A DNA stretch of 64,000 nucleotides from Candidatus Sumerlaeia bacterium (GCA_039683515.1 JBDKRG010000059.1:105003-169002); one strand, 5' to 3'. Shown: positions 17,627-63,630, numbered from the stretch's first letter. The notes: a model not told the origin generated them from the sequence alone. Translations and numbers: made by a program.

Positions 17627-18004
17627 TTATTTCATCATCTCGCTGCGCTGCTTGAGCAATTTCACGAGCTCTTCCATCTCGAAGTCCATCTGGCGCGCCT
17701 CGGCCAGGACCAGGTCGATCCGCTCGGCGAGGATCCGCCGCTGCTCGGCGCGGGTCAGCGGCGAGCCCCCCTCCGCGACGTAGACGCCGGCCCCGCGCCG
17801 GGTCATGATCAGCCCCGCCGTCTCCAGCTCGCGGTAGGCCCGCGCCACCGTGTTCGGGTTGACGACGAGTTGCTCGGCCAGCCGCCGCACGGGCGGGAGC
17901 TGCTCGCCGGGGCCGAGCCGGCCCGAGGCAATGAGGTATTTGACCTGGTTCAGGATCTGCAGGTAAATGGGCAAGCCGTCGTGGGAAGAAATATGGATCT
18001 GCAT
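17627..18004 (-). CDS. GntR-family transcriptional regulator, short YtrA-like subtype
   Basis: 'LPIYLQILNQVKYLIASGRLGPGEQLPPVRRLAEQLVVNPNTVARAYRELETAGLIMTRRGAGVYV' plus a short C-terminal helical tail (125 aa total). Confidence 0.88.
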   Translation of the reverse strand: MQIHISSHDGLPIYLQILNQVKYLIASGRLGPGEQLPPVRRLAEQLVVNPNTVARAYRELETAGLIMTRRGAGVYVAEGGSPLTRAEQRRILAERIDLVLAEARQMDFEMEELVKLLKQRSEMMK

Positions 18005-18027: not shown

Positions 18028-18051
18028 ATTGTATTAATACATTAATACAAT
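18028..18051. promoter_or_regulatory. perfect 11-bp-arm palindrome, candidate GntR/YtrA operator
   Basis: ATTGTATTAAT ac ATTAATACAAT, 24 nt upstream of the GntR start. It contains GT-N6-AC cores. Confidence 0.6.
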
Positions 18052-18161
18052 TCTGTCAAGCAATTTTTGGGGCGGGCCGGAACCCCGGCGGCGGTTTCGG
18101 AGGTGGTTGTCCTAATATGCTACTGATTTATCAAGGTTTAACTGGTCCAAAGTGCTTTTTC

Positions 18162-18229: not shown

Positions 18230-18706
18230 ATGAGCCTACAAGAAGAACTCAATTTCCCCAATCCGGTGCTGAATCCCCGGCATGAGACGATGATCAGCCT
18301 GGTGCTGACCGGCGCTCTCCTGACCAAGGAGGGCGACCGGCTCCTGAACCCATACGGCCTGACCGACAGCCAATTCAACGTCCTGATGCTCCTGCGCTAC
18401 CAGACCGAGGACGGGCAGCTGAACCAGACGCAGCTGGGGCGCATGCTCCTCGTCAACCGCTCCAACGTGACCGGCCTGATCGACCGGATGGAAAAGGCGG
18501 GCTGGGTGCAGCGCATCTCCAAGTCGGGCGATCGCCGGGTCAACCAGATCAAGCTGACCAATGCCGGCCGGCGGCTGGTGGAAAAAGCGGAAAAGGCGTA
18601 TTTTGCGCGGATCGAGCAGGTTTTGGCCCCCATCAGCGAGAGCGAGCAGATCGCCCTCAAGGACATGCTGAGCCGCATCCGGCAATCGATCCACGTCGAG
18701 CCGTAA
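18230..18706 (+). CDS. MarR-family transcriptional regulator
   Basis: 'LTDSQFNVLMLL...QTQLGRMLLVNRSNVTGLIDRMEKAGWVQRISKSGDRRVNQIKLTNAGRRL' is a winged-helix MarR core. Confidence 0.88.
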   Translation: MSLQEELNFPNPVLNPRHETMISLVLTGALLTKEGDRLLNPYGLTDSQFNVLMLLRYQTEDGQLNQTQLGRMLLVNRSNVTGLIDRMEKAGWVQRISKSGDRRVNQIKLTNAGRRLVEKAEKAYFARIEQVLAPISESEQIALKDMLSRIRQSIHVEP

Positions 18707-18741
18707 GCCGCGTTTGGATTCGGTGCCATGGACAAGATCCG

Positions 18742-18776
18742 GCCCGCCGCGGGTTGACCCTTGCGGCGGGCTTTTT
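18742..18776 (+). terminator. rho-independent terminator after marR-like gene
   Basis: GCCCGCCGC ... GCGGCGGGC stem followed by TTTTT. Confidence 0.75.
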
Positions 18777-18782
18777 CGTCGT

Positions 18783-18819
18783 CAAAAAGAATGACCCCGG
18801 ACTGGGCCGGTCCGGGGTC
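18783..18819 (-). terminator. rho-independent terminator after pilin-like gene (minus strand)
   Basis: GACCCCGGA ... TCCGGGGTC stem. On the minus strand it is followed by ATTCTTTTT. Confidence 0.7.
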
Positions 18820-18873
18820 GCGTTGCGATGGGAAGGAGGGAAGGAGAGAGAGGGAATCCTTAAAGCCGCCCTT

Positions 18874-19263
18874 TTATTGCTGATTGTGGTCCAGCGGCGA
18901 GACCACGGAACATTCGGCGGCGATTGAAATCGAGTTGATCGTGTATTCGCCGCCGCCGGGGCAGACGGGCTGCTTGTTCAGGTAACCGGTGCCGTCGGCG
19001 CTGACCAGATCGGTCCACTGCGGAACGGCATCGACGTCCTGCTTGTATTCGAGGGCCCACTGTTCCTTGGCGCCATCGATCTTGGTAAGGTTCTCCTGGC
19101 ATACGCGCTGCTGCGACAGGAGTCGCTGCTTCATCCAGGTCGGGGCCGCAATCGCTATGATGATCCCCAGAATCGCCACGACAATCATGATCTCCACGAG
19201 CGTGAAGCCGCGAGAGCCGCGTGCGATCCGTGCTGCGTGATTAACCGGCCTCATGGAATTCAT
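18874..19263 (-). CDS. prepilin-type N-terminal cleavage/methylation domain protein (type IV pilin / pseudopilin-like), paralog A
   Basis: 'RGFTLVEIMIVVAILGIIIAIAAP' then 'CQENLTKIDGAKEQWALE...PVCPGGGEYTI'. Confidence 0.88.
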   Translation of the reverse strand: MNSMRPVNHAARIARGSRGFTLVEIMIVVAILGIIIAIAAPTWMKQRLLSQQRVCQENLTKIDGAKEQWALEYKQDVDAVPQWTDLVSADGTGYLNKQPVCPGGGEYTINSISIAAECSVVSPLDHNQQ

Positions 19264-19282
19264 ATCCGGTCATCCTTGACGG
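19264..19282 (-). promoter_or_regulatory. candidate CsrA-binding site overlapping the SD of pilin paralog A
   Basis: mRNA sense is CGUCAAGGAUGACCGGAU-AUG. The core CAAGGAUG equals the CARGGAUG core of the SELEX consensus RUACARGGAUGU. A second GGA lies 9 nt downstream. Confidence 0.4.
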
Positions 19283-19378
19283 AATTTGGAACCGAGAGGT
19301 CAAAAAGAAGGGCGATAGTCGATTGTGACGATCTACCGCCCTTTTTGTTACCCTAACATCTTGCCACACGCGCGCCGA

Positions 19379-19741
19379 TTACAGGTCGGCCAGGCTGTGC
19401 GGGCTGCCAAGGCTGCAGCTCGGATCGGTGCTGACGCTGCCGATCGTGTAGGTGCCGCCACCGGGGCAGGCCGGCTCTTTCTTCATGTAGCCGGAGCCGT
19501 CCGTCTGGACCAGGTCGGTCCACGCCGGGCTGTCGGAAGCGCCCTTGTTGTTCTCGAGCGCCCACTGTTCCTTCGCGCCGTCGATCTTGGACAGGTTTTC
19601 CTGGCAGGCGCGAGCACGCGACTGGGTACGGGCCTGGACGAAGCCGGGGACCGCGATCGCGATCAGGATGCCGATGATCGCCACAACGATCATGATCTCA
19701 ACAAGCGTGAAAGCCTTCCGTGTCTTTGAGAAAAGCTTCAT
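19379..19741 (-). CDS. prepilin-type N-terminal cleavage/methylation domain protein, paralog B
   Basis: 'KAFTLVEIMIVVAIIGILIAIAVPGF' then 'CQENLSKIDGAKEQWALE...PACPGGGTYTI'. Confidence 0.9.
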   Translation of the reverse strand: MKLFSKTRKAFTLVEIMIVVAIIGILIAIAVPGFVQARTQSRARACQENLSKIDGAKEQWALENNKGASDSPAWTDLVQTDGSGYMKKEPACPGGGTYTIGSVSTDPSCSLGSPHSLADL

Positions 19742-19923
19742 TGATCCACCTCCGTGTATTGATCCGAGTCCCTTGGGGGATTCTCGTTGTTCCCTTCGCC
19801 GATCTGATTCAGCAAAGCTAATGCCAATTCTCGGTTCGATTTTCTATTAGCTTTGATTTCCCTCCTTTTCGGCCAGATATCCAATGTTTTCAGCGTCTTG
19901 TCGGATGTCGTCGATTTTTTCAT
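19738..19923 (-). CDS. candidate 61-aa small protein, translationally coupled to pilin paralog B
   Basis: 'MKKSTTSDKTLKTLDIWPKRREIKANRKSNRELALALLNQIGEGNNENPPRDSDQYTEVDQ'. Its TGA overlaps the pilin ATG as ATGA (19738-19741). There is no clear SD, and the longer 106-aa version is unlikely. Confidence 0.35.
   Translation of the reverse strand: MKKSTTSDKTLKTLDIWPKRREIKANRKSNRELALALLNQIGEGNNENPPRDSDQYTEVDQ
19748..19770 (-). promoter_or_regulatory. candidate CsrA-binding site(s) in leader of pilin paralog B
   Basis: mRNA sense is CUCGGAUCAAUACACGGAGGUGGAUCA-AUG. AUACACGGAGGU matches RUACARGGAUGU at 10 of 12 positions and covers the SD. A second GGA lies 12 nt upstream. Confidence 0.4.
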
Positions 19924-20095
19924 CGGCCGCCGGGGCCGCCGCCGCGGCCGTCCCGCCGGCCTCGGCCTGGGTAATGGGCAGGACATTACCCATTCGCGCG
20001 TGTAACCCCTTACCCGTCGGTGGCCAAAAAAAGAGCCCTTGTTACCGGGGTACAGCAATCAAGGACTCGGGAACCGGCGCGCGGCGGCCGGACGG

Positions 20096-20587
20096 TTACG
20101 AGGCCGCGCGTTCCATTTCCACGAACTCGCACTCTTCATCCGTCTTGCCGCCGCCCAGCGTCGTGAACACGGGCGAGTTGATCTGGTAGCAGTTGGTGCT
20201 CAGCACCACCTGGCGGCCGCGCCGCGTCTCGACGTTGACGACCAGCGGGGCCTTGAGGTTCGCGGTCATCATCAGCGGGGCGTTGTGCGGGATCGTGGCG
20301 ATCGCCATCAGGGCGCAGCAGTTGGGCAGGTCGGTGCCGATGATGCGCTCGGTGTCGACGTCGATCTCGAACCGGTAGTCGGAGACGATCTGGTACGGAT
20401 CGAGCACGATGAACGCGAGGTCGGCGTTGTCCAGCGACTGAAGCCACTTGAACGGGCTGCCGTTGGCGTCATGCTCGAGCAGGATGTAACGCTTGTTGTC
20501 GGGAAAGCCGAGCACGCCTTCAGGGAAGCTCATGACGACTTCGTCGGTGAATTCGATCTCGCCAAAACGTGTGGTCCTGAATTTCAT
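20096..20587 (-). CDS. fliW: flagellar assembly factor FliW
   Basis: 'MKFRTTRFGEIEFTDEVVMSFPEGVLGFPDNKRYILLE...FKWLQSLDNADLAFIVLDP...NLKAPLVVN' is typical FliW. An alternative TTG start at 20626 would overlap the csrA stop. Confidence 0.9.
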   Translation of the reverse strand: MKFRTTRFGEIEFTDEVVMSFPEGVLGFPDNKRYILLEHDANGSPFKWLQSLDNADLAFIVLDPYQIVSDYRFEIDVDTERIIGTDLPNCCALMAIATIPHNAPLMMTANLKAPLVVNVETRRGRQVVLSTNCYQINSPVFTTLGGGKTDEECEFVEMERAAS

Positions 20588-20622
20588 TGCTGCCGTTTCC
20601 TTTGCTGACTGAAATCCGCGCT

Positions 20623-20883
20623 TCAAACCAGGGGCCGCCCCCCCCCGTCACCCTTGTGCTGTTGCCAGATCGAGGTGAGCGCGTCGACCGTTGAGGGACT
20701 GGACTGGGCCGCCATTTCGTTTTCCTGCCGGATCAGCGAGTAAATCTCGTCGCGGTGGACCATGATGTTCTTGGGCGCATCCACGCCCAGCCGAACCTGG
20801 TTGCCGCGAATCTCGATCACCTTGATCGTGATCGAATCGCCAATCCGGATCCCCTCGCCGGACTTCCGTGTCAAAATCAGCAT
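20623..20883 (-). CDS. csrA: carbon storage regulator CsrA
   Basis: '[48 protein letters not shown]' is canonical CsrA, with a ~35-aa C-terminal extension as in FliW-partnered CsrA. Confidence 0.95.
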
Positions 20884-20989
20884 CGGTTAACTTCCTTGTT
20901 CTACGTTCCTTGTGGGGACACCGAATCTGTTAATCTCTACGGTATGAACCGCTCAAATCTTTAGCCGCGGGATAACTTTTCTGTTTCGT

Positions 20990-21865
20990 TTACGGCTGCA
21001 GCGCGGCGCGGGCTTCCTTGCGGTCGCGCAGCAGGTGGCGCTGCACCTTGAACAGGTGATGGATCAGGCGCTCGCGGTCGGCCTCGTGGATGTGGGTGAA
21101 CCGCACGCCGATGTCGTAGCGCTCCGGCCCGCTCTCCCCCGGCTGCTGGACGCGCGCGCAGCGGACGACCGCCCCCATGCACTCGATGTGGATCGCGGGG
21201 GTGGCGCGCAGCTTCATTTCGATCCGGATGTAATCGCCCGCCGTCAGCGGCTGCGCCGCGATGAACCCGACGCCCAGGCTCGAGCAGTCGACGACCATGA
21301 CCGGCCGGACCATCCCGTGCATGGCGGCCACGGGGAGTTCGCCGCGCACGGCGGCCGCCAGGTCCTCGACCTTGCCGGCCAGATCCTGCACGAGCTCCTT
21401 GAGGGAGGCGATTTCCGCGCGCATCTCCTCGAGCGGGTCTTCCTCGGCCTTCAGAAGCTTGTTGGCTTCGCTGCCGGGCTCGTCGGCCATGTTGACGCGC
21501 GACATGACAAGATCGGCGATCTGGCTGACGTCGGCGGCCGGTACGGCCTCGTACCGCAGGTCGACATCGATCCGCCAGCGCGGCGCCTCTCGCCTCTCCT
21601 GAATGATCAACTGGCCCACCAGCTCACTGCCGGTATGGCTGCGCACGAGGAACTGACAGCTGCGCTGCACACTGTCCTTTTCCCACGCGAGCATGTACAT
21701 TTTCTCGATTCGTTGCGGGATCCGGCCGCTCTGGCCTCGATCGAGCTCGACGATCAGGGTCTCGCTGTCGCTGATCTTGACGGAGCCCTTGAAGCGCTCG
21801 CCATTGGTCAACGACAGCGTCGGGATGCTGATCTGTTGGCCGCGGCCAATTTCAACGATCGCCAT
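20990..21865 (-). CDS. PilZ-motif protein (YcgR-like layout) with internal coiled-coil insertion
   Basis: 'RREAPR' (RRxxxR) and 'DCSSLG' (DxSxxG) are both present but about 95 aa apart, separated by 'LEEMRAEIASLKELVQDLAGKVEDLAAAV'. Confidence 0.55.
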   Translation of the reverse strand: MAIVEIGRGQQISIPTLSLTNGERFKGSVKISDSETLIVELDRGQSGRIPQRIEKMYMLAWEKDSVQRSCQFLVRSHTGSELVGQLIIQERREAPRWRIDVDLRYEAVPAADVSQIADLVMSRVNMADEPGSEANKLLKAEEDPLEEMRAEIASLKELVQDLAGKVEDLAAAVRGELPVAAMHGMVRPVMVVDCSSLGVGFIAAQPLTAGDYIRIEMKLRATPAIHIECMGAVVRCARVQQPGESGPERYDIGVRFTHIHEADRERLIHHLFKVQRHLLRDRKEARAALQP

Positions 21866-22604: not shown

Positions 22605-22675
22605 TTCGTGCTCGTGCGTCGAGCTCGTGCTCGTGCTCGTGCTCGTAATCGTAATCGTAATCGAAAATCGATCGA
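22605..22675 (+). repeat. hexamer composite repeat (CGTGCT)n(CGTAAT)n, copy 2
   Basis: ttcgtgctcgtgcgtcgagctcgtgctcgtgctcgtgctcgtaatcgtaatcgtaatcgaaaatcgatcg. It begins 28 nt upstream of the smpB start codon, on the opposite strand. Confidence 0.92.
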
Positions 22676-27600: not shown

Positions 27601-27667
27601 AATGGCATCACGGCTCGGGCGAAATCGAATCAGTTTGCCTTTGATCGCCTCCCGCGATAGCCTATGG

Positions 27668-27750
27668 GTCTGAGCTGGGGGTGCTGCGCCGAACGGCGCG
27701 GCTGAGAGAGTCCCTTCGAACCTGATCCGGGTAATGCCGGCGCAGGGAAA
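27668..27750 (+). promoter_or_regulatory. TPP (THI-box) riboswitch aptamer
   Basis: gggggtgc...ggCTGAGAgagtcccttcgaACCTGATCcGGgTAATgCCggCGcAGGGAA matches the conserved TPP aptamer cores (CUGAGA; ACCUGAUCUGGAUAAUGCCAGCG). It lies directly upstream of thiC. Confidence 0.88.
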
Positions 27751-27780
27751 GCTTTCCGGCTTTCTTTCCCCCACACTTAA

Positions 27781-34333: not shown

Positions 34334-35020
34334 ATGCCCCGCATCGCCCGTTTTGTCCTGCCCGGCCACGCCCACCACATCCTCCAGCGCGGCAATAACG
34401 ATCAGCCCGTATTCCTTTCGGACGAGGATCGGATGGCGTATCTGGAGCTCCTGCGCGACGAGTCCGAGCGCCACGGCCTGCACATCCTAGGCTACTGCCT
34501 CATGGACACGCACCTGCACCTGGTCGCGATCCCGACCGAGGCCGAGTCGCTCGCCCGGGCCGTCGGCCGGGCGCACTTCCGCTATGCGCAGCAGTTCAAC
34601 CTCGCCCACCAGCGCGGCGGGCATTTCTGGAACAACCGGTTCCACTCGTGCCTGCTCGAAGGGCCGTGCACGCTGGCGGCGCTGCGGCTGATCGAGCGGA
34701 ACCCGGTCCGCGCCGGCTCGGTCAAGCAGCCGTGGCAATGGCCGTGGTCGAGCGCCTCGGCGCATTTGGGCGAAATCGACTTCAGCGGCCTGATCGACCC
34801 CGAGCGCTGGTCGGCGCTGTCGCACGGCCGTGACTGGCGCAACGAGCTCAAGCGCAAAGACGACGAGGCCGAGCTCAAGCGGCTGCGCCTGGCGACCAGC
34901 ACCGGCCGGCCGTGGACCAGCGAGGCGTTCCTGAAGAAACTGGAAAACGACCTGGGCAAGCGGTTCCACGCGCTCGCCCCGGGCCGGCCCAAAAAGAAAA
35001 CCGAAACAGCCGTGGCGTAA
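34334..35020 (+). mobile_element. IS200-like Y1 transposase, REP-associated tyrosine transposase (RAYT)-type, solitary
   Basis: 'HAHHILQRGNNDQPVF' (HuH region), 'GLHILGYCLMDTHLHLV', 'YAQQFNLAHQRGGHFWNNRFHS' (catalytic Tyr region). No partner tnpB and no obvious IS ends. Confidence 0.8.
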
Positions 35021-37689: not shown

Positions 37690-40488
37690 TTAGTATTGTG
37701 TGATCTTGGCGGTCTCGCGCAGCTTGTCCATCCAGTCCTCCAGGTTCGGGAAGATCGGATACTGGTGGCCGGCCACCCAATCCGAGCGGATGCTGTAGGT
37801 GAACTTCTGGCCGACCTGGTAATTCATGATGGCATAGGTCTCGCCCGGCAGTTGCTCCAGCCGATTGAAACGCGCCACCGGGTAAACGACGCCGATGCCG
37901 ATCCAGCCGATGCTCCCGTCCTGGAAGCCGCGGTAGCCCATCACGCCGGCCGTCTCGTCGATGGCGAACGTCGAGCTGGTGATCTTGCGGAGGCCGATGC
38001 CGACCTCGACCTTGTCGCCCTTCTTGCCGCCCTTGATCTGGACCTCGATCGGCGAGTCGGGCCGGCCGGCCAGCGCCGTCGGGCGGAAGATCACGGTGTA
38101 GGGATTGTCCGCCGGGCCGACATTGGTCACGACGCACTCCAGCGTGACCTTGGTCTTCGTGTACTCGATCGGCTCGATCTTGCCGTCCTTGCCCTTGTGC
38201 CACGTGAAGATGGGGTTCATCTTCGGGGCTTCGGGGACGTCCGGCTTGTAGACCGGGTAGTTCTTCCCGTTGATCCACAGCATCAGGCCGCCGCACCCGC
38301 AGGTGTTGCCGATGTGCAGGCAGTCCATCCCCCAGTTCTGCTGTTCGTGGTAGCTGCCGCCGCCGCCGCGATTGGGGCTGGTGATGATGGGGTACAAGAG
38401 GACCGGGCGGGTCTTGCCGAAGCAATCCCAATGGCCGTAATACATGCGGTAGCCCGTCTCCCCGTTCAGGGATTCCCAGCCGACGTTGGGCGGGAGCCAC
38501 GTGTCGTCCCACGCCACCGCCTGGACCTGGGGCTCCTTCTGCAGTTGGGCGCGCCACTTGGCGTAGGCCTTGGGCGCGGGGGCGGCAAAGAGGCCGGCGA
38601 ATTTCTGAACCGGGTTGCAGTATTGCTTGCGGATGAGCCGCGTCATCGCATCGGTGTCGCCCGTGACGCGGGCGGCGACGAGCTTCTCGACGAACGCGGT
38701 CTTGTTGGCGGCGTTGGCCTGCTCCTGGAGGGCGCACAGGCGGCGGTCGGCGGCAAGCCGCATGAAGAACATCATCGATTCGTCGCGGGCGAGCAGCTTC
38801 CTGGACAGCGTCTCGGTCGTGATCGGGCTGAGGAACTTGGCCTCGATGAAGCTCCAGACCTCGTCCTTGCCCGAGCCCGGCTTGATGTTGTTCAGGGCCG
38901 TGGCCAGCGCCTGGTTGAGCGCGTAGAGGCGGGCGGGCTCGTCGTTGACGACCGGCCCGAACGCGCCGTTGACTTCCTGGAAGTTCCACTTGACCGGCTT
39001 GACGCCGCCCTCGTCGAGCTTCCAGTAATCCTCGGTCTCGCCGTCGCCGTTGACGTCGATCTGGACGCGGTCGACGATGCCGTTGGAGTCGGTGTCGAAC
39101 CACTCGTAGCGCATGTCGTTCTTGCCGTCGAAGTTGTAGTCGACGTCCATCCACGCCGTGCTCTGGTCCTTGAGGTGGATGCGCTTGTCGGCGGGGCTGA
39201 AGTAGTATTCAAACGGGCCCTTGGGGGCGTTGATGTATTCGAAGCGGCGGTTGACGGGGCCGCTCGAGGGGCCGCCCACGGCCGGGAAAATGACCTGGCC
39301 GTCGCGTCCCTTGTAGGCCTCGTTCAGGACGCCTTCCCAGCGCTCGCCGGCGGCCTTCTGGACCGCGGGCACGGGGGCGACGTTGTTGCCGTCCTCGACC
39401 CACGTCAGCATCGCGGCCGGGTACGTGACCGAGCCGAGCCATTCGGCGGCGCGGTCGCGGTCGAGCATGATGCCGACCGGCCTGCCCTGGACGGTCCACT
39501 CGGGCCGGGCGTATTCCTGCGGGATGCGCAGCGTGAACGCCGGGCCGGTGCGGCTCGGGTCGACCTTCTGGGTCCAGCCCGGGCCCTCGGCCGAGATCGA
39601 GACGTCGTAGGCGCGCGGGTTATCCTTCGTCCCGGCGTTGGCCGCGTCGAAGCTCCAGCGCAGCGAGCGGACGAGGCCGTCGTCGGCGACCAGGCGGATG
39701 ACTTCCTCGGTCACGCCGTCGCCGTCGCGGTCGTAGAACTCGAACGGGTTCTCGAAGAACGCCGTCCAGCGCGGCTCGCCCGGCTTGATGCGCAACTCGA
39801 CGAACCCCTCGTTGCCGTTGAAGTGTGTGCGCGTCTGGCAGCGGTTCTGGTCGTAGGCATAGTTGACGTCGTACCACAGCAGGTGGTCCTTGCCGACTTC
39901 CTTCTCGGTCGCGCCGTAGTTCTGGGAGTACCAGCAGAGCACCATCCCGCCGTTGTAGGCGGAGCCGGTATACATGCCCATGCGGTCGAGGCCGCCGTCG
40001 CCGTCGACGTCTTCGTAGTCGATCACGGCGTCGAGCATGCCGTCGGCCTTCCAGTCGGCGTAGAACGTGCTGTTGGCCTTGTTGGGCTCGTCGCCCTTCT
40101 TGATCGGGTACTTGGGGACGGCCTTGACGATGATCGGCTTGCGGGCGGCCGAGTGGCGCGAGTCGTTGTCGAGGAACCACACCTCGTCGGGCTGGCCGTC
40201 GTTGTTGGTGTCATAGTAGAAGCGCGGGGCGGGATCCTCGGCCCCCAGCTTTTTGCCCGAGGCCAGGACTTCCGAGACCTTGGCCGGATCGAGCTTGGCC
40301 TTGTCGCCGAAAACATACTCCAGAGCGGCCTGTTTGTCGGCGGGGTTTGGCGCCTGGCGGGCCGGAGCCTTCTTGCCGGCCGCGGCGGCCCCGCGCTGCC
40401 CGTTGCGGCCGGGCCGCTGGGCCTGGACCTCGACCGCCATCGCGAACACAACCACCAGTGCGATTGACAACATCAATCGACTCTTCAT
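37690..40488 (-). CDS. large secreted protein, paralog 1 (Ca-binding-loop repeats; C-terminal DUF4861-like region)
   Basis: The start at 'MKSRLMLSIALVVVFAMAVEVQA' has SD AAGGGAGAG. There are multiple D-x-[DN]-x-DG loops ('DTNNDGQPDE','DVDGDGGLD','DRDGDGVTEE','DVNGDGETED'). The C-terminal 'GWESLNGETGYRMYYGHWDCFGK...NTCGCGGLMLWING' is reminiscent of DUF4861. Confidence 0.6.
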   Translation of the reverse strand: MKSRLMLSIALVVVFAMAVEVQAQRPGRNGQRGAAAAGKKAPARQAPNPADKQAALEYVFGDKAKLDPAKVSEVLASGKKLGAEDPAPRFYYDTNNDGQPDEVWFLDNDSRHSAARKPIIVKAVPKYPIKKGDEPNKANSTFYADWKADGMLDAVIDYEDVDGDGGLDRMGMYTGSAYNGGMVLCWYSQNYGATEKEVGKDHLLWYDVNYAYDQNRCQTRTHFNGNEGFVELRIKPGEPRWTAFFENPFEFYDRDGDGVTEEVIRLVADDGLVRSLRWSFDAANAGTKDNPRAYDVSISAEGPGWTQKVDPSRTGPAFTLRIPQEYARPEWTVQGRPVGIMLDRDRAAEWLGSVTYPAAMLTWVEDGNNVAPVPAVQKAAGERWEGVLNEAYKGRDGQVIFPAVGGPSSGPVNRRFEYINAPKGPFEYYFSPADKRIHLKDQSTAWMDVDYNFDGKNDMRYEWFDTDSNGIVDRVQIDVNGDGETEDYWKLDEGGVKPVKWNFQEVNGAFGPVVNDEPARLYALNQALATALNNIKPGSGKDEVWSFIEAKFLSPITTETLSRKLLARDESMMFFMRLAADRRLCALQEQANAANKTAFVEKLVAARVTGDTDAMTRLIRKQYCNPVQKFAGLFAAPAPKAYAKWRAQLQKEPQVQAVAWDDTWLPPNVGWESLNGETGYRMYYGHWDCFGKTRPVLLYPIITSPNRGGGGSYHEQQNWGMDCLHIGNTCGCGGLMLWINGKNYPVYKPDVPEAPKMNPIFTWHKGKDGKIEPIEYTKTKVTLECVVTNVGPADNPYTVIFRPTALAGRPDSPIEVQIKGGKKGDKVEVGIGLRKITSSTFAIDETAGVMGYRGFQDGSIGWIGIGVVYPVARFNRLEQLPGETYAIMNYQVGQKFTYSIRSDWVAGHQYPIFPNLEDWMDKLRETAKITQY

Positions 40489-40677
40489 CTGACTCTCCCT
40501 TCGATGAAAATATAGTCCGAGGCGCGTCACGGCCGATCCGGCCGCGCAGAGTAACCGTTCATTCAATCAAATACCATTCATCACTCATCAGTCAGGCAAT
40601 GTCAATAAAACTAGTGTCGCGTCAAATGTCATCTGTTGGATTTGTTTTTGAACCGCGAAGCGGTTCGACGTTCAAAG

Positions 40678-40716
40678 CCGTGGGTTGAATCGCCGCTGTT
40701 GCGATTCAACCCACGG
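40678..40716. other. perfect 16-bp stem hairpin
   Basis: CCGTGGGTTGAATCGC-cgctgtt-GCGATTCAACCCACGG, 19 nt beyond the stop of the 40735..43410 gene. There is no U-tract, so it is not a classical terminator. Confidence 0.8.
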
Positions 40717-40734
40717 AACGCGCTCAGTCCTGTT

Positions 40735-43410
40735 TCAATAGTTCGCCAGCTTGGCCGTCCGGCGCAGCTGGTTCATCCAGTCCTCCGGCGACGGCGCGAC
40801 CGGGAACCGGTGGCCGCGGACCCAGTCCGACTGGATGCTGTAGGTGAACGTCTCGCCGACCTTGTATTTCAGCACGGCGAAGTGCTGGAACGGCATCGTC
40901 TCGACGCGCAGGAACCGGTCGGCCGGGAAAACCACGCCGAAGCCGGCCCAGCCGATCGACGGGTCCTGCCAGCCGCGGACGCCCATGACGCCGGCCTGGC
41001 CGTCGATCATGAACGTCTCGCTCCCCATCGGCCGCCCCTGGGACTGGAAGCCCAGGCCGACGCCGACCTCGAGCTTGTCGCCCGGGTCGCCGCCGGTGAT
41101 CGTGACCTCGATTGGGGAGTCGGCGCGGCCGGCCAGCGCGCTCATCCGGAACCGAACCGTGTACGGCGTGGTTCCGGTCGTGCCGACGTTGGTCGCCACG
41201 CACTCGAGCGTGACCTTGTCGCGCGTCGAAACGACCGGGCCCGCCGTCCACGTGAACTCGGGCCCCGCCTTGCCGATCTTGTAAACCGGGCAGGGCGTGC
41301 CGTTGACCCACAGCATGAGGCCGCCGAGGCCGCACGTCTGGCCGCCGTGCAGGATGTCCATCCCCCACGACGTGTTGTTGCGGATCATGGCTTCCTTGTC
41401 GGCGTTGAGGATCGGGTAGCACAGCACGTCGCGGCTCTTGCCGAACGTGTCGAAGTGGCCGTCATACATCCGGAACGCCCCCTGCAGCGACTCCCAGCCG
41501 TAGTTGGGCGGCAGCCACTGGTTGTCCCAGCCGACGAGTGGGCCCTGGGGCCTGGCGCGCAGCGCGCCGATCCAGTCGGCGTAGGTCTGCGGCGGGGCTG
41601 AGACCTTGAACGCCTTGCGGACAAGCCTCGTCATCGCGTCGATGTCCCCCCGGCTCCTGGCCGCCTCGAACCTGCCCAGGAACTTCGCGTCGCCCGCGGC
41701 CTGCGCCTTGAGCGCGCACAGCGCCTGGTCGGCCGAAAGCCGCAGGTAGAACAGGATCGACTCGTCGCTCGACAAAAGCTTCTGCTGGAGCGCCTCGGTC
41801 GTAGTCGCGCACCGGAACCGGTTGTTGAGGAGCGTCCATGCCGCGTTCCACGGCGTGTTGGGCCGGTTCTTCTCGATCGCCCGCAGGAGCGCGCAGTTGA
41901 GGGCATAAAGCTTGGCGGGTTCCTGTTTTTCGACCGGGCCGGTCGCCTGGTTGATCGCCTCGAACGTCCACGCCACCGGCGCGATCCCCGCCTGGTCGAG
42001 CGGCCACGCGTCGTCGATTTTCCCGTCGCCGTTGACGTCGACCGTCATCTTGTCGACGTAGCCGTTGCGGTCGGCGTCGACGAACTCGTAGAACATGTCG
42101 GTCCGGCCGTCGCGGTCCATGTCGACGTCGATGAACGAGCGGTCGGCGCCCTTGAGATGCAGGCGCTTGTCGGCGGGCAGGAAGTAGTATTCGAGCGGGC
42201 CCTTCGGGGCCGCCAGGTATTCGTTGCGCTTGTTGAACCGGCTGCACGGCGGCCCGCCGACCTGCGGGAAGACGACCTTGCCGTCTTCCGAATACGCGTG
42301 GTTGAGGATCCCCTCCCAGCGCTCGCCGAGACCGGTGTCGCGCGGGGTGACGTTGTCGTCGTCCTCGTCCCACGTCATGAGGGCCGCCGCCCACGTGACC
42401 GGCATGAGCCAGCCCACGCACTTGCCGGGGTCCATCATGAGGTTCGTCTTGAAGCCGCGGACCGTCTCGGTCTTGCAGACGTCCTCGCCGTAGCGGAGCG
42501 TCAGGCTGCTGCGGTCGCCCTGCGCGAGCGTCCAGCCCGGGGCGCGCGCCGAAATGGAGACGTCGTAGTCGCGCGGCGAGTCGGCCGCGCCGTCGCCGTC
42601 GGCGTCGAAGCTCCAGCGCAGCGAGGCGACGAGGCCGCCTTCGCTCACGACGCGGACGACTTCCTCGGTCACGCCGTCGCCGTCGCGGTCGAAGAACAGG
42701 AACGGGTTTTCGTAGCGGCAGGTCCAGCGGTCCTCGCCCGGGCGGATGCGCAGGGCGTAGAACGATTCGCTCCCGCCGAAGTGGGTGCGGTACTGGCATT
42801 CCGTCTGGCTGTAGCGGTAGTCGATGTCGTGCCAGAGGAGGTTGTCGTCGCCGTCGTCGCGCGACCACCAGCAGTCGACGCTCTCCTTGCGGGCGGTGAA
42901 GATGCCCATGCGGTCCAGGTCGCCGTCGCCGTCGGTGTCCTCGTAATCGACGACCGAGTCGACGAGGCCGTCGGCATGGCAGTCGGCCACGAACGTCGCG
43001 TTGGCGCGGCCGACTTCGTCCCCTTCCTTCAGCTTGCCGGTCTTGTCGATGGCGCGGACGAGGAGCGGCCGGTTGCCGGGCATCGCGCCCGGGTCGATGA
43101 ACCAGGCCTCCTCCGGCTTGCCGTCGTTGTTGGTGTCGGCATAGAAACGCTGGCCGGGCCGGGCGGCCCTGACCTTGGCGATCATCGCCGGGTCGAGCTT
43201 GACCTCGCCGCCGAACACGTACTCGAAGTTGGCCTGCCGGGCCTCCGCCAGCGCCTTCTGTTCGGGCGTCATGACGAACGGCGGATAGACCGGCGCCGCG
43301 TCCGCGCGCCGGCCCCGGCGCGCCGGCTGGGGCTCGTCGCCTTCCTGCGCGTGGACGGCAACCGCGCTGAAAAACAAAAACAGAGCAGCCAGGATCAATC
43401 GACTCTTCAT
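40735..43410 (-). CDS. large secreted protein, paralog 2
   Basis: The start at 'MKSRLILAALFLFFSAVAVHA' has SD GGGAG. It is colinear with paralog 1: 'ENPFLFFDRDGDGVTEEVVRVV', 'LRWSFDA', 'YDVSISA', 'PKGPLEYYFLPADKRLHLK', 'WGMDILHGGQTCGLGGLMLWVNG', 'FTYSIQSDWV'. The N-terminal 440 aa of the 1335-aa ORF in the track is spurious. Confidence 0.6.
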   Translation of the reverse strand: MKSRLILAALFLFFSAVAVHAQEGDEPQPARRGRRADAAPVYPPFVMTPEQKALAEARQANFEYVFGGEVKLDPAMIAKVRAARPGQRFYADTNNDGKPEEAWFIDPGAMPGNRPLLVRAIDKTGKLKEGDEVGRANATFVADCHADGLVDSVVDYEDTDGDGDLDRMGIFTARKESVDCWWSRDDGDDNLLWHDIDYRYSQTECQYRTHFGGSESFYALRIRPGEDRWTCRYENPFLFFDRDGDGVTEEVVRVVSEGGLVASLRWSFDADGDGAADSPRDYDVSISARAPGWTLAQGDRSSLTLRYGEDVCKTETVRGFKTNLMMDPGKCVGWLMPVTWAAALMTWDEDDDNVTPRDTGLGERWEGILNHAYSEDGKVVFPQVGGPPCSRFNKRNEYLAAPKGPLEYYFLPADKRLHLKGADRSFIDVDMDRDGRTDMFYEFVDADRNGYVDKMTVDVNGDGKIDDAWPLDQAGIAPVAWTFEAINQATGPVEKQEPAKLYALNCALLRAIEKNRPNTPWNAAWTLLNNRFRCATTTEALQQKLLSSDESILFYLRLSADQALCALKAQAAGDAKFLGRFEAARSRGDIDAMTRLVRKAFKVSAPPQTYADWIGALRARPQGPLVGWDNQWLPPNYGWESLQGAFRMYDGHFDTFGKSRDVLCYPILNADKEAMIRNNTSWGMDILHGGQTCGLGGLMLWVNGTPCPVYKIGKAGPEFTWTAGPVVSTRDKVTLECVATNVGTTGTTPYTVRFRMSALAGRADSPIEVTITGGDPGDKLEVGVGLGFQSQGRPMGSETFMIDGQAGVMGVRGWQDPSIGWAGFGVVFPADRFLRVETMPFQHFAVLKYKVGETFTYSIQSDWVRGHRFPVAPSPEDWMNQLRRTAKLANY

Positions 43411-44932: not shown

Positions 44933-45128
44933 AAGCGCTGAAAGCGCGGGAGATTTCAGCCTGGGGTGGAGCGAAGCGTAGCCCCAGGAATAAGGCGTAA
45001 CATTGACAGGAGCGCTGAAGGCGCGAGAGAAACTTATGTCACGCCTTCAGCGCTCGTTATTTCTTCGTCCGACACCTGGGGCTGCGCTTCGCTCCACCCC
45101 AGGCTTAATTCTCTTGCGCCTTCAGCGC
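44933..45128. repeat. ~200-bp composite nested-palindrome element, copy 1
   Basis: Module order: AAGCGCTGAAAGCGCG / CCTGGGG-N15-CCCCAGG / GAGCGCTGAAGGCGCG / CGCCTTCAGCGCTC / CCTGGGG-N15-CCCCAGG / GCGCCTTCAGCGC. The outer, middle and inner pairs are mutually complementary. Confidence 0.9.
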
Positions 45129-56537: not shown

Positions 56538-56736
56538 AAGCGCTGAAAGCGCGAAAGAATACAGCCTGGGGCGCAGCGAAGCGCAGCCCCAGGTAAGCGG
56601 CGCCATATCATTGGAGCGCTGAAGGCGCGGAAGAAGCCGATTTCTCTCGCTCCTTCAGCGCTCCGGTTTGGTGCGGTTCGTGACCTGGGGCTGCGCTGCG
56701 CTTCGCCCAGGCTATGATCTCTTGCGCCTTCAGCGC
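56538..56736. repeat. ~200-bp composite nested-palindrome element, copy 2
   Basis: Same module order and spacing as 44933-45128: AAGCGCTGAAAGCGCG ... CCTGGGG-N15-CCCCAGG ... GGAGCGCTGAAGGCGCGG ... GCTCCTTCAGCGCTCC ... CCTGGGG-N15-CCCAGG ... GCGCCTTCAGCGC. Confidence 0.9.
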
Positions 56737-59558: not shown

Positions 59559-60794
59559 TTACTTCACGCCGACCACCTGCGCCATGTTGAAGTAGGGCAG
59601 CAGGACGGCCGTCGCGATGAAAATCACCACGCCGCCGAGCATGATGATCAGGACCGGCTCGATGATGCTGGCCATGCCGGCCAGCGTCGTGCTGACTTCG
59701 GTGTCGTAGGTATCGGCGATCTTGTTGAGCATCGTGTCGAGCGTGCCGGTTTCCTCCCCGACCGCGATCATGTCGACGACCATCGACGGGAAGATCCGCG
59801 CCTGCGCGAGCGGTTCGCTCATCCGGCCGCCGCGCTCGACCTCGTCGCGCACGTCGTACCAGGCGTCGGCCACAAGCAGGTTCTCGCTCGAGTCGCCGGT
59901 GATCCGGATCGCGTCGGTCAGCGGGATGCCGGCCGAAACCAGGCCGCCCAGCGTCCGGCAGGAGCGGGCCACGGCGATCTTGCGGTTAATGCCGGACACG
60001 ATCGGGATCCGCAGCCCCAGCCACGAATACACGCGCCGCCCTGACGGGACCCGGCCCCACAGGCTCAGGCCGATGACGCCGGCCACGAGCGCGACAATGA
60101 TCACGGGCCACGCGGCCGCGAAGAAATCCGACATCCCGATGATGACCGTCGTGGGCCGCGGCAGGTTGACGTCGTTCTGCTTGTAGACCTCGGCGAAGGT
60201 CGGGATCGCCTTGACCATGATGACCATCACGACCATGATCGCCACGCACAGCGCCACGATCGGGTACATCGCCGCGGACCACGCCTGCCGGCGGATGCGC
60301 GCCTTGGATTCCATGATGTCGGCCAGGCGCCGGAGCGATTCCTCCAGGATGCCGCCGACCTCGCCGATGCGGACGATCGAGACGACGAGCGTCGAGAACG
60401 TGCGCTCGTGGCGGGCAAGCGCCTGGTGGATCGGCTCGCCTTCCTCGACACCCTTGGCGGCGTCGGCGATGGCGTTGCGCAGGCGGCCGTTGCTCGTGCG
60501 CTTGGAGAGCATCTGGAGCGACTTGAGGACCGGGATGCCGACCTGGATCAGCGTCGAGAACTGGCGGCAGAACACCGCCTTCTCCAGGAACGTCGGTCCG
60601 AACACCGAGATCGGCTTGGCCAGCGTGCTGACCATGGCGTCGGTCGTGCCGCCGGCTGCCGGACCCGTCTCGAGCGCTTCGCCTTCGCGCGCCAGCGGCG
60701 CGTCCTTCTCGTGGGGCAGGCCGGCCTTGGCAAGGGCCTCCTGCAGAGATGAACGCCCGGAACTGGCCTTGTTGGTGTCTTTACGAGGTTGCAT
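59559..60794 (-). CDS. type II secretion / type IV pilus platform protein (GspF/PilC family)
   Basis: Two T2SSF repeats: 'FCRQFSTLIQVGIPVLKSLQML...GEPIHQAL' and 'SCRTLGGLVSAGIPLTDAIRI...GGRMSEPL'. Three TM segments. Confidence 0.9.
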   Translation of the reverse strand: MQPRKDTNKASSGRSSLQEALAKAGLPHEKDAPLAREGEALETGPAAGGTTDAMVSTLAKPISVFGPTFLEKAVFCRQFSTLIQVGIPVLKSLQMLSKRTSNGRLRNAIADAAKGVEEGEPIHQALARHERTFSTLVVSIVRIGEVGGILEESLRRLADIMESKARIRRQAWSAAMYPIVALCVAIMVVMVIMVKAIPTFAEVYKQNDVNLPRPTTVIIGMSDFFAAAWPVIIVALVAGVIGLSLWGRVPSGRRVYSWLGLRIPIVSGINRKIAVARSCRTLGGLVSAGIPLTDAIRITGDSSENLLVADAWYDVRDEVERGGRMSEPLAQARIFPSMVVDMIAVGEETGTLDTMLNKIADTYDTEVSTTLAGMASIIEPVLIIMLGGVVIFIATAVLLPYFNMAQVVGVK

Positions 60795-60920
60795 CGCCTG
60801 TTTCCTCCGCTTGGCTGTTTGCCTTTGTGTTCAATCCTTATCCAGTTTAAACGATCCCGCGGTTGAAATTCGAATTTCGCGACCGGTTCGGATCCCGAAA
60901 TGCGAACGTTGTGCTTCTCC

Positions 60921-63152
60921 CTAGATCTCGAACAGTATCTTGCGGCTCACCTCCTCGACGGTCGTGTGCCCGTCGAGAACCTTGAGGCCGGCGGCCTGTT
61001 CCAGCGCGATCATCCCCGACTCGCGCGCCACCTTCTCGAGCTCGGCCGAGCTGTTGGAGTCCGAGATCAGCAGGCGCATCGCTTCGCGGATCGCGACGGT
61101 CTCGAAAACGCCCGTCCGGCCCAGGTAGCCCGAGTGCAGGCATGCATCGCAGCCGCCCGCCTTGTAAATCCGCTTGCGCGTCCCCTCGGGCAGCCGCAGC
61201 CGCGTGACCTCGTCGGCCTTGAGCATGTATCCCTTGCGGCAATCGCCGCACAGCTGGCGGACGAGGCGCTGGCTGAGGATGCCGACCAGCGAGGCGGCCA
61301 CCATGAAGCGCATCGCCCCCAGGTGGATGAGCGCGTCGATGGCCCCGAGCGCCGTGTTGGTGTGCAACGTGGACAGGACCAGGTGGCCGGTCATCGCGGC
61401 GCGGATGGCGATGTGCGCCGTGTCGCCGTCGCGAATCTCGCCGACCATGATCACGTCCGGGTCCTGGCGCAGGATCGAGCGCAGCCCCTGGGCGAATCCC
61501 ATGTTGATGTTGGAGTCGACCTGGACCTGGTTGACGCCGACGAGCTGGTACTCGACCGGGTCCTCGATGGTGACCAGGTTGCGGCTCTCGAGGTTGAGCT
61601 TGGAGAGCGCGGTGTAAAGCGTCGACGTCTTGCCGCTGCCGGTCGGGCCGGTCACGAGGATCATCCCGAACGGGCTCTCCAGCATCTGCTCGAACAGCTT
61701 CTGCTGGTCGGCGAGCATCCCGAGGTCGGCCAGGCCCATGCTGACCCGCGCCGAGTCCAGGATTCGAATCACAACCTTTTCGCCATGAATCGCGGGCAGC
61801 GTCGAGATCCGGAAGTCGATGCCGCGGTCGTCCAGGCGCAGCTCGAAGTGGCCGTCCTGCGGCCGGCGCCGCTCGGTCACGTCCATCTCGGCCAGGACCT
61901 TGATGCGCGACACGACCGGCTGCATGAGCCCCGGCGGGATCGTCAGGATCCGGCGCAGCTCCCCGTCGATGCGGAACCGGACGGTCATGCCGTCGGCCAT
62001 CGGCTCGAGGTGGATGTCCGTGGCGCGCGTGTCGAGCGCGCTCTCGATGAGCGAACTGACGAGCTGCACGGCCGAAACGTTGTCGGCCACGGTGACCTCG
62101 GCGTGATCGGTCCACGACACGGTCGGGGTCGGTTCGGCCTTGCCCTCGCCGGCGCCCCCCTTGGCCCGCGGCGGCTGCTTCTGGACGGGCGGCTTGACGG
62201 GGGCCGGCGGCGGCACGAAGGCCGGCGCCGGGCTGGCCGGCGCCTCGCTCGCCTTGTAGAAACTGTTGATCTGGTTGATGATGTCCTGGGCGGGGGCCAG
62301 GAACGGCTGCGGCCACATGCCGGTCGCCCAGCGGATCAGCCCCCACAGCGGCAGGTTCATCGGGTCGGCGGTCACGATCCCCAGCCGGCCGTCCTGCTTG
62401 AACAGCGGGACGATCATGTGCCGGCGCAGGAAACTCTGCGGGAAGAGCCCGAACATGACCGGGTCGGCCTGGAATTCGGCGGGCGGCTCGAACGGCAGCC
62501 GCAGCCCCTCATCGATCTGCTTCATGAGCGATTCGGAGGTCAGGCCGCTCTTGGCCAGCCGGCCGACGAGCTCGGAGTCCTCGATCAGCTTCGGGGCCTG
62601 GGCGAGCAGGTCGTCGCCGACGAGGTCGTTGGCGCGGGCCAGCACCACCGCGACCCACATCGCCGCCTCGCGCGACGGCATCCCCTGCGGGTTGCTCAGC
62701 CACTGGCAGACGGCCTGGGCCGAAACCATCTCATCGATCACGATCCAGCCCGGGTCGTTCGAGCCGCGCCGGCCGGCCTCGGCCATGATCTGGCCGGCCC
62801 GGTCCGGGCTGATCACGCCGTCGCGCTCGAGCGGCCCGATCAGGCCCGCCATCGGCGGCCGGTGCAGCGAAAGCAGCTGCGCCAGCTCCTGGTCGTTGAT
62901 CATGCGCGACGATGTCAGGCCCGAGTGAAGCGCCTCGTGGCCCTGACCGCTCTTGAGGGTGATTTCGGCGTTGAGCAGGTCGCGGAAGGTGTCGAGCGAA
63001 ACCTCCTGGAAGAGCACCCCGAGGATCGGTTTGTGCTTCTGGTTGCGCTTGATGAACGCGGACCACTCGTTTTCGCTCAGCAGGCCGGCCGTGTGGAAAA
63101 GTCGCACCAACTGCGGGGACTGCTTGGACTTGGGGGTAGTTACCTGGTTCAC
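60921..63152 (-). CDS. GspE/PilB-family secretion ATPase with ~330-aa N-terminal extension
   Basis: Walker A 'GPTGSGKTST', Asp box, Walker B 'IMVGEIRD', His box 'GHLVLSTLHTN' and tetracysteine 'CGDC...CDAC'. A T2SSE_N-like region 'FLRRHMIVPLFKQDGRLGIVTADP' and a Pro-rich linker precede the ATPase. Confidence 0.92.
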   Translation of the reverse strand: MNQVTTPKSKQSPQLVRLFHTAGLLSENEWSAFIKRNQKHKPILGVLFQEVSLDTFRDLLNAEITLKSGQGHEALHSGLTSSRMINDQELAQLLSLHRPPMAGLIGPLERDGVISPDRAGQIMAEAGRRGSNDPGWIVIDEMVSAQAVCQWLSNPQGMPSREAAMWVAVVLARANDLVGDDLLAQAPKLIEDSELVGRLAKSGLTSESLMKQIDEGLRLPFEPPAEFQADPVMFGLFPQSFLRRHMIVPLFKQDGRLGIVTADPMNLPLWGLIRWATGMWPQPFLAPAQDIINQINSFYKASEAPASPAPAFVPPPAPVKPPVQKQPPRAKGGAGEGKAEPTPTVSWTDHAEVTVADNVSAVQLVSSLIESALDTRATDIHLEPMADGMTVRFRIDGELRRILTIPPGLMQPVVSRIKVLAEMDVTERRRPQDGHFELRLDDRGIDFRISTLPAIHGEKVVIRILDSARVSMGLADLGMLADQQKLFEQMLESPFGMILVTGPTGSGKTSTLYTALSKLNLESRNLVTIEDPVEYQLVGVNQVQVDSNINMGFAQGLRSILRQDPDVIMVGEIRDGDTAHIAIRAAMTGHLVLSTLHTNTALGAIDALIHLGAMRFMVAASLVGILSQRLVRQLCGDCRKGYMLKADEVTRLRLPEGTRKRIYKAGGCDACLHSGYLGRTGVFETVAIREAMRLLISDSNSSAELEKVARESGMIALEQAAGLKVLDGHTTVEEVSRKILFEI

Positions 63153-63165
63153 GACGGCTGCCTTT

Positions 63166-63630
63166 CTAGCGGGTGATGGGTTGCGCGGCCAGGCGAACCA
63201 TGCCTCGGCGGCGCGACTGGGTGTTGATGAGGACGCGGTCGACCGTGCCGGCCGCGGGTCCGCCCGTCCAGCGGATGTTCAGGAGCATGTCGCCCGGACG
63301 CTGGCGCATGCCGGGCATCGAGCCCCACGCCTCGTCGGCCGCCGCCAGCGGGCGGACGCCGACCTGCGCCGAAAACGCCATGTCCGTGATGATCGGCTTC
63401 TCGGCGGTGGACGTGATCGTGATGGTGGTCGCGGTGTCGACGGGCGAGACGATCCCCGCCATCGCCGCCAGCGCCCCGGCGTGCTCCATCCGGCCGCGGC
63501 CGGTGTCGTCCTGGTGGACGGTCTGGCTGACGGAGCCCTGCACCGCGGCCAGGTAGAAGATGAGCACGGTCAGGACGCCGATGACCGCGATGAGCGCGAA
63601 ACCGCGCCGGCTGCGTGAATGTTGCATCAT
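63166..63630 (-). CDS. minor pseudopilin / GspK-like hypothetical protein
   Basis: The start at 'MMQHSRSRRGFALIAVIGVLTVLIFYLAAV' overlaps the upstream stop as ATGA. The hydrophobic N-terminal helix is typical of GspK-like components. The 267-aa ORF in the track is an over-extension. Confidence 0.4.
   Translation of the reverse strand: MMQHSRSRRGFALIAVIGVLTVLIFYLAAVQGSVSQTVHQDDTGRGRMEHAGALAAMAGIVSPVDTATTITITSTAEKPIITDMAFSAQVGVRPLAAADEAWGSMPGMRQRPGDMLLNIRWTGGPAAGTVDRVLINTQSRRRGMVRLAAQPITR

Follow-up and report, generated by a model that had tools for sequence, protein, structure and literature searches.

The stretch of DNA analysed here, 64,000 nucleotides (nt) from a Candidatus Sumerlaeia bacterium and called the window in what follows, carries a csrA–fliW gene pair followed by two genes for prepilin-type proteins, pilin B and pilin A. 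From the gene order, the promoter motifs and the comparison with related loci, we consider it highly probable that this is a flagellar-type csrA–fliW unit standing beside a sigma-54 pilin unit, the two being kept together in a flagellated lineage. The functional link between the modules would most likely be post-transcriptional, and direct control of pilin translation by CsrA, mainly through pilin A, is a possibility that we take seriously and hold tentatively. The linkage is the strongest part of the observation; the motif case is mostly a matter of resemblance to ribosome-binding sites (RBSs), except at pilin A.

An original prediction, made from the sequence alone, had named csrA, fliW and two prepilin genes, and all four were found where it had placed them, on the minus strand, with a further gene upstream of csrA:

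20990-21865, minus strand: PilZ-domain protein, 291 amino acids (aa), upstream of csrA (Pfam PilZ, E = 3.3e-09)
20623-20883, minus strand: csrA, 86 aa (Pfam CsrA, E = 8.5e-24; NCBIfam CsrA)
20096-20587, minus strand: fliW, 163 aa, with a 35-nt gap to csrA (Pfam FliW, E = 5.9e-36)
19379-19741, minus strand: pilin B, 120 aa, with a short leader peptide (N_methyl, E = 8e-08)
18874-19263, minus strand: pilin A, 129 aa, with a long basic leader peptide (N_methyl, E = 1.5e-08)

Homologous loci are denoted by L-numbers, and those that hold csrA–fliW and the pilins together are called linked. The order csrA–fliW–pilin–pilin was found in nine species-level loci, all of one Sumerlaeota lineage: window/L001, L003, L004/L167, L005/L086, L011, L089, L168, L169 and L170/L171. 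FliW identity to the window is 73% in L003, 64% in L004/L167 and in L089, 61% in L005/L086, L011 and L169, and 59% in L168; an identical copy of the window locus is present on a 10-kb contig of a public sequencing run. The flanks of the block vary. Downstream, the linked loci continue with MarR, LacI, MlaA, an unknown protein and then infC, a short-chain dehydrogenase (SDR) or an amine oxidase; upstream, a PilZ gene stands in six of the nine (the window, L003, L005/L086, L011, L169 and L170) and other genes in two, and no PilZ gene lies upstream of csrA in L167 or L168. The original prediction had named loss of this synteny among relatives as a reason to abandon it; instead, the csrA–fliW–pilin order was kept while the flanks changed. 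The pilin end of the block shows some variation of its own: L168 has pilins B and A and then a second B, and in L169 the B type is present twice, both copies having a promoter unit of their own. Downstream of the second of these, at about 4500-4630 of L169, lies what looks like the C-terminal remnant of an A-type pilin (DGSGYLKQKPICPASGTYTLGS), which suggests that pilin A was lost in that species.

Outside the lineage, the arrangement is different. Among 80 FliW loci from species-representative genomes, a prepilin gene lies at most 3 kb from fliW in four, all of them from this lineage, and within the same distance in none of the 76 loci outside it. Other phyla provided 17 loci in which fliW/csrA is followed, within about 1.7 kb, by the start of a flagellin gene, so the pilins hold the position usually taken by the known target. 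In the distant Sumerlaeota loci L083 and L084, csrA–fliW closes the series flgF/G-A-H-I-J-M-N-K-L and no pilin genes follow; judged by gene order, csrA–fliW has in the present lineage moved away from the flgJ-M-N-K-L operon, at whose 3' end it is usually found.

The proteins themselves fit these assignments. The RNA-binding residues of CsrA are R6 and E46, and a C-terminal extension bearing N55 is needed for antagonism by FliW; read from its sequence, the CsrA of the window is of the FliW-partnered type, with R6, E46, N55 and the extension. It was aligned with the Bacillus subtilis CsrA 1t3o through residue 71 and also with the Geobacillus CsrA of the FliW complex 5dmb, and the FliW of the window matches the Geobacillus FliW of that complex (PDB 5dmb_A) at E = 2.3e-17. 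The closest named FliW homologues come from Candidatus Sumerlaeota (formerly BRC1), and 26 invariant columns are common to the window FliW and the flagellar-operon FliW of other Sumerlaeota.

The two pilins are paralogues with 57-59% identity, their orthologue groups A and B are cleanly distinct in the alignment, and their Pfam match is to the prepilin N_methyl motif only. Both have a class III signal peptide (N_methyl, TIGR02532), reading KA/FTLVE in B and RG/FTLVE in A, and pilin B has Ala at -1, Phe at +1 and Glu at +5; the residue at -1 (19712-19714, minus strand) is Ala in L003 and L170 as in the window, and the usual Gly in all other orthologues. Matches of pilin B to GspG, PilA and ComGC profiles are weak and limited to the N-terminal helix, and membership in GspG, Myxococcus PilA or ComGC was rejected, the NCBIfam scores of 40-44 bits lying far under the cut-offs of 75-400. 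The AlphaFold2 model of pilin B (predicted local distance difference test score, pLDDT, 85) has a 50-residue helix (13-63) and a small globular domain with short strands; in Foldseek, it gave weak matches to pilins and pseudopilins only, the best being PilJ, GspG and PilA1 at E values of at least 0.7. Homologues number 6434 at E <= 1e-10, which makes the family a very large one, and its members commonly form tandem arrays remote from csrA–fliW: the unlinked L172 adjoins a secretin and L173 a PilT-sized ATPase. The soil-metagenome homologues (L087-L166) have a different, strongly conserved leader, GTTCACGCCGC...CAGAAAGG, 25-40 nt before the start codon, and roughly 20-40% of them, the share depending on the strictness of the match, are also preceded by a sigma-54 promoter, in most cases at a distance of about 100-115 nt. 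Within the window itself, a T2SSF (PilC/GspF-like) gene adjoins a T2SSE ATPase with an MshEN N-terminal domain, which binds cyclic di-GMP (c-di-GMP), at 59559-63278 (minus strand); the pair makes up an assembly platform for a pilus or for type II secretion, about 40 kb from the pilins.

The original prediction described csrA–fliW as lying directly upstream of the pilins, which passes over a 354-nt spacer with its own sigma-54 promoter and upstream repeats. The elements of the spacer and of the flanking leaders are as follows:

20935-20963, minus strand: sigma-28 (FliA)-like motif TAAAG-N16-CCGTAGAG, about 50 nt upstream of the csrA start
20026-20032, minus strand: weak hairpin and then a run of seven T following fliW, which would terminate transcription weakly at best
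19969-20015, minus strand: inverted repeats GTAA-N4-TTAC and GTAA-N11-TTAC, a putative enhancer for a sigma-54 activator
19811-19826, minus strand: putative sigma-54 promoter TGGCAT-N5-TTGCT of pilin B (one match in the window, 0.03 expected)
19765-19786, minus strand: predicted hairpin in the 5' untranslated region (5'UTR) of pilin B, with a species-variable stem sequence and no GGA in the loop
19747-19757, minus strand: ribosome-binding region ACACGGAGGUG of pilin B, the site of the original prediction (unique in the window; 0.94 expected at up to one mismatch)
19302-19341, minus strand: intrinsic terminator between pilin B and pilin A, GGGCGGTAG...CTATCGCCC plus a T-run, read in the sequence
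19266-19282, minus strand: predicted RBS hairpin of pilin A, CCGUCA[AGGA]UGACCGG, with CAAGGAUG (minimum-energy fold)
18793-18819, minus strand: terminator after pilin A, from the terminator scan, with the stem GACCCCGG...CCGGGGTC

The two modules carry separate promoter motifs. The published consensus of sigma-28 (FliA) is TAAA-N15-GCCGATAA, and the -10 element of the motif upstream of csrA matches it at about four to five of eight positions; by comparison with that consensus, we read the csrA promoter as probably sigma-28-like. The pattern TAAAG-N14..17-CCGTWDAG has one match in the window, with none expected, and the motif recurs upstream of csrA in L001, L003, L004, L011, L089, L167, L168, L169 and L170 (the last by eye), with the variant CTCAAG in L086. 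It is also found in the FliW loci of one Nitrospirae and one Bdellovibrionales genome.

On the pilin side, the motif assigned to sigma-54 stands 69-99 nt before the pilin B start in eight of the nine linked loci, L089 having AG for GG, and a GTAA-N4..11-TTAC element lies 145-185 nt further upstream in all nine. We infer a sigma-54 promoter from this pattern; no gene for a sigma-54 activator was found within the 64-kb window. The 5'UTR of pilin B is about 60 nt long and has a predicted hairpin in every species, with differing stem sequences; the energy z-scores of the leaders containing it, from -0.5 to -2.5, are individually not significant. The whole layout looks like classical, activator-dependent sigma-54 control of pilins. 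Pilin A follows behind the intrinsic terminator, the stem sequence of which is conserved in L004, L005, L011, L089 and L168. Between the pilin A stop and the terminator after it lies a CU-rich tract (18820-18873, minus strand) with UCCUUCC repeats resembling an anti-Shine–Dalgarno sequence; tract and stem occur together in the window, L003, L086, L170, L172 and L173, that is, in linked and unlinked loci, and the tract was ruled out as a CsrA-related feature since the unlinked loci have it too. Two further candidates in the spacer were rejected. A gene-finder call of a 48-aa open reading frame (19847-19993) is conserved in no relative and overlaps the conserved upstream repeats, and was therefore treated as spurious; and an Rfam search of 18700-21100, even at E <= 1, gave no matches for a CsrB/RsmY-like sponge or any other known RNA.

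The case for CsrA is best at pilin A. As background, we scored the leaders of 48 window genes against the CsrA consensus RUACARGGAUGU. The pilin A leader reads CGUCAAGGAUGA, exactly as the original prediction had quoted it; it matches the consensus at eight of 12 positions with the core CAAGGAUG intact, and its 12-mer score is tied fifth among the 48. CARGGATG is present in a single copy in the window, at the pilin A RBS, while shuffles give 4.4 copies anywhere in the window. In a scan of the clade's DNA, three of the nine copies fell at a pilin A RBS and none at another plausible RBS, and L170 adds a fourth. The predicted fold presents AGGA as a tetraloop on a stem of 6-7 bp, UCA[AGGA]UGA, over the RBS. 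UCAAGGAUGA is found in the window, L003, L086 and L170, four of the eight linked species, and in neither of the two unlinked; in L086, one outer pair of the stem has changed from G-C to A-U. Among 30 flagellin leaders that adjoin fliW/csrA in other phyla, nine have the same CARGGAUG at -36 to -59, in several cases between complementary flanks. Two sites seem to be combined in these leaders, CARGGAUG forming a hairpin upstream and a GGAGGA RBS being the second.

Pilin B is more ambiguous. Its leader, AUACACGGAGGU, is also exactly as first quoted and reaches ten of 12 consensus positions; it is tied first of the 48 by score and has the most GGAs (four). As a CsrA site, however, it consists mainly of a perfect GGAGGU Shine–Dalgarno (SD) sequence, and SDs of the CGGAGG type occur at other genes of the window. 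ACACGGAGGU is found in seven of the 11 linked B-type copies, and the hairpin presenting a GGA at this site has a 3-bp CAC/GUG stem only. The score of pilin B is shared by the leader of csrA itself, GAACAAGGAAGU. That leader (20886-20925, minus strand) holds two ACAAGGAA motifs, 15 nt apart; the copy at the RBS is kept as (A/C)CAGGAAGG or ACAAGGAAG in all linked loci and the upstream copy is not, and CsrA may possibly regulate its own synthesis.

A considerable number of observations weigh against direct control of the pilins. The sites do cover the SD as originally described, with GGA at -12 to -10 in both pilins, but a GGA lies in this RBS window in 36 of the 48 leaders. The argument from paired GGAs fell to the very comparison that the original prediction had proposed for it: a second GGA lies 6-30 nt away in 14 of the 48 leaders, and the SD GGA sits in a 4-8-nt loop closed by at least 3 bp in 15 of them, so both features are at background level. 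Nor are the second GGAs 9-12 nt away as had been claimed; that of pilin A lies 8 nt downstream, and those of pilin B lie 6 nt downstream and 12 nt upstream. Work in E. coli puts the minimum spacing for one CsrA dimer to bridge two sites at about 10 nt (the bridgeable range being about 10-63 nt), and the 8-nt and 6-nt spacings fall under it. In the relatives, the second GGA of pilin A is kept in the window and L003 only, and those of pilin B, at +6 and -12, are unconserved. The fold energies of the leaders are no better than those of shuffles, and no pilin leader combines an upstream hairpin site with an RBS copy in the way of the flagellin leaders. The 5'UTR hairpin of pilin B was rejected as a CsrA site, GGA being absent from its loops. 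Even the CAAGGAUG hairpin of pilin A is absent from four of the eight linked species. The sigma-54 promoter, the UTR hairpin and a GGAGG site are all found in the unlinked pilin pairs L172 and L173 as well, with similar upstream repeats that are clear in L172 and less clear in L173; this layout thus belongs to the pilin genes themselves. The conservation of the gene order can also be overrated: with about ten rearrangements on the three other junctions and none on the fliW–pilB junction, the probability under equal junction rates is about (3/4)^10 = 0.06, which, from such a rough count, is suggestive and marginal only. Finally, flagellins, the canonical target of CsrA, exist in this lineage.

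The evidence for the last point comes from published genome tables. The metagenome-assembled genome (MAG) ADurb.BinA292, our L004, belongs to subgroup 3 (order UBA8349), one of two flagellated subgroups (Fang et al. 2021, PMC8092238), and is reported to encode fliC in three copies, fliD, two fliS, fliF/G/M/N/O/P/Q/R, flgD, flgE and flhB (PMC8092238 Data Set S1e); fliA is annotated in two subgroup-3 MAGs, and all but one Sumerlaeota genome have 6-26 'gspG-like' genes (PMC8092238). Neither the window nor any of the 20-kb loci fetched for the lineage was found to contain a flagellin gene. Taken with the flagellar gene set of ADurb.BinA292, this means that the lineage is flagellated, that its flagellins are encoded elsewhere and that the pilins are no flagellin replacement. 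The original framing, in which csrA–fliW is followed 'not by a flagellin', is therefore misleading. A switch of FliW's partner to pilin, or a loss of flagella with the module recycled for pili, is very improbable. Such an explanation can point only to the pilins' standing where flagellins sit in other phyla, while the flagellar genes of ADurb.BinA292, the sigma-28-like motif retained by csrA and the columns that FliW shares with its flagellar-operon relatives all speak against it; furthermore, pilins are inserted in the membrane with their globular domains in the periplasm, beyond the reach of a cytoplasmic FliW, and binding of FliW to a membrane-inserted pilin seems unlikely.

A more serious alternative is that there is no link at all: csrA and fliW act on flagellins encoded elsewhere, the pilins form an ordinary sigma-54 locus, the two have remained neighbours because an ancestral adjacency was never broken, and the 'sites' are simply RBSs. 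We regard this as quite plausible, without thinking it probable. The separate promoter motifs, the three fliC genes, the GGA features at background level, the absence of the pilin A motif from half of the linked species and the promoter and UTR layout shared with unlinked pairs are all as it would have them, and so is the sheer size of the pilin family, for which 80 metagenome loci were fetched and csrA–fliW was found in a single one, L089. On the other hand, the adjacency has outlived the change of both flanks in most of the nine species, the association is unique to the lineage among the 80 FliW loci, and the only CARGGATG in 64 kb sits on the pilin A RBS. A link could also be transcriptional, with transcripts from the sigma-28-like promoter reading through fliW into pilin B in addition to those from sigma-54. 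This is compatible with control by CsrA, but we consider it improbable, as we do its corollary that the pilins would partly be late-flagellar genes. All four genes lie on the same strand, the terminator scan of the window flagged none after fliW, and among the linked loci the T-run at this point is found in the window and L003 only. In six of the seven other linked loci, the fliW stop and the beginning of the pilin's upstream repeats are 16-65 nt apart, with nothing resembling a terminator between them (L089, with its broken fliW reading frame, was left unscored for this spacing), so transcripts starting at the csrA promoter could run on into pilin B. Against it, the dedicated and conserved sigma-54 promoter with its repeats makes a second promoter unnecessary, and termination after fliW could be Rho-dependent.

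Control of pilin synthesis by CsrA, which the original prediction had raised, thus comes out of the analysis in a reduced form: the conserved synteny and a pilin A core like that of the flagellin leaders speak for it, while the GGA pairs are at background level, the pilin B site is mostly an SD and the pilin A site is present in half of the species. If CsrA does act here, we would expect the following, CsrA binding and the direction of the regulation being what we infer from the position of the sites. The first module, csrA–fliW, would be the canonical partner switch of flagellin homeostasis, with a sigma-28-like, late-flagellar motif ahead of it; in the second, pilin B would be expressed from a sigma-54 promoter with activator repeats and a structured 5'UTR, with pilin A behind the terminator. 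Free CsrA would bind the AGGA-loop RBS hairpin of pilin A, possibly together with the GGAGG site of pilin B, and lower the translation of the pilins; on export of flagellin, FliW would be released, CsrA sequestered and the block on the pilins lifted, such that the supply of pilus subunits would track the state of flagellar assembly. The larger proposal, that FliW–CsrA has gained the pilin mRNAs as direct targets and that flagellin export sets pilin translation in a hard-wired flagellum-to-pilus switch, we think rather unlikely. Such a switch would be encoded by the conserved four-gene block of sigma-28 csrA–fliW and sigma-54 pilins, often accompanied by the c-di-GMP-binding PilZ protein.

The remainder of the window holds several features apart from this locus. 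A palindrome, TTGTATTAATGTATTAATACAAT, lies at 18030-18065 between a GntR gene (17627-18004, minus strand) and a MarR gene (18230-18706, plus strand); it stands ahead of the GntR-family gene, is conserved in L003 and probably serves as that gene's operator. A tandem array of about ten copies of the hexamers TCGTGC/TCGTAA is found at 22606-22663 (plus strand), just upstream of smpB, and a thiamine pyrophosphate (TPP) riboswitch at 27667-27766 (plus strand), upstream of thiC. An IS200/Y1-type transposase-like gene lies at 34334-35020 (plus strand), a neighbouring pair of DUF4861 proteins, each about 900 aa long, is encoded at 37690-43410 (minus strand), and the Acido-Lenti-1 RNA motif is present in two copies, at 44934-44988 and 56539-56593 (both minus strand).

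A FliW-type CsrA is usually treated as a dedicated regulator of flagellin, and the evidence for a wider role, from Clostridioides difficile and Geobacter, is recent and indirect. If true, the conserved csrA–fliW–pilin link would give the first indication from genome data that such a CsrA has a specific target other than flagellin, with a textbook-like predicted CsrA hairpin on the RBS of pilin A, and it would suggest how bacteria with two organelles coordinate swimming with pilus-based behaviour, in a phylum that has no cultured member. Should the link prove false, the locus would still illustrate cleanly a sigma-54 promoter of pilin genes and a csrA–fliW pair that has moved out of its flagellar operon. 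In the literature searched, we found no description of the csrA–fliW–pilin arrangement, the closest precedent being Geobacter.

The partner switch of Hag, FliW and CsrA is known from Bacillus subtilis and also acts on flaA of Campylobacter jejuni and fliC of C. difficile. The locus of the window resembles it in a CsrA with the C-terminal extension and N55 that has FliW as its neighbour, in the late-flagellar-type promoter motif ahead of csrA and in the gene immediately downstream having a GGA on its RBS; it differs in the order, csrA–fliW rather than fliW–csrA, and in the downstream genes, which are pilins with their own sigma-54 promoter and not a flagellin. The pilin leaders also lack the two-site layout of the flagellin leaders of other phyla. 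In Pseudomonas, Myxococcus and Geobacter, sigma-54 and PilR-type activators control the genes of the major type IV pilins, and the GG-N10-GC promoter before the first gene of the pilin array and the inverted repeats at about -150 to -190 agree with such control, although GTAA-Nx-TTAC is not among the known PilR sites. RpoN is reported from 13 Sumerlaeota genomes, whereas pilR and pilS, as well as pilA, are unannotated in the Sumerlaeota MAGs (PMC8092238). In Geobacter sulfurreducens, csrA lies within flgJMNKL-csrA-fliW and CsrA affects biofilm formation and the expression of pilA-N (PMC11934962, PMC13407953); deletion of csrA changed the pilA-N mRNA, and the authors suggest a control of pilA translation (PMC11934962). 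The window shares with Geobacter the order csrA–fliW and a FliW-type CsrA suspected of influencing a sigma-54-dependent pilin, and the layout of the distant Sumerlaeota is that of the Geobacter operon extended upstream by the rod and ring genes flgF/G-A-H-I. The pilA of Geobacter, however, does not adjoin csrA–fliW, the link there consisting of a transcript effect and speculation, whereas in the window csrA–fliW has left the flagellar operon and is physically linked to the pilins. Overall, the locus is a variation on the known FliW–CsrA system and not a new kind of system.

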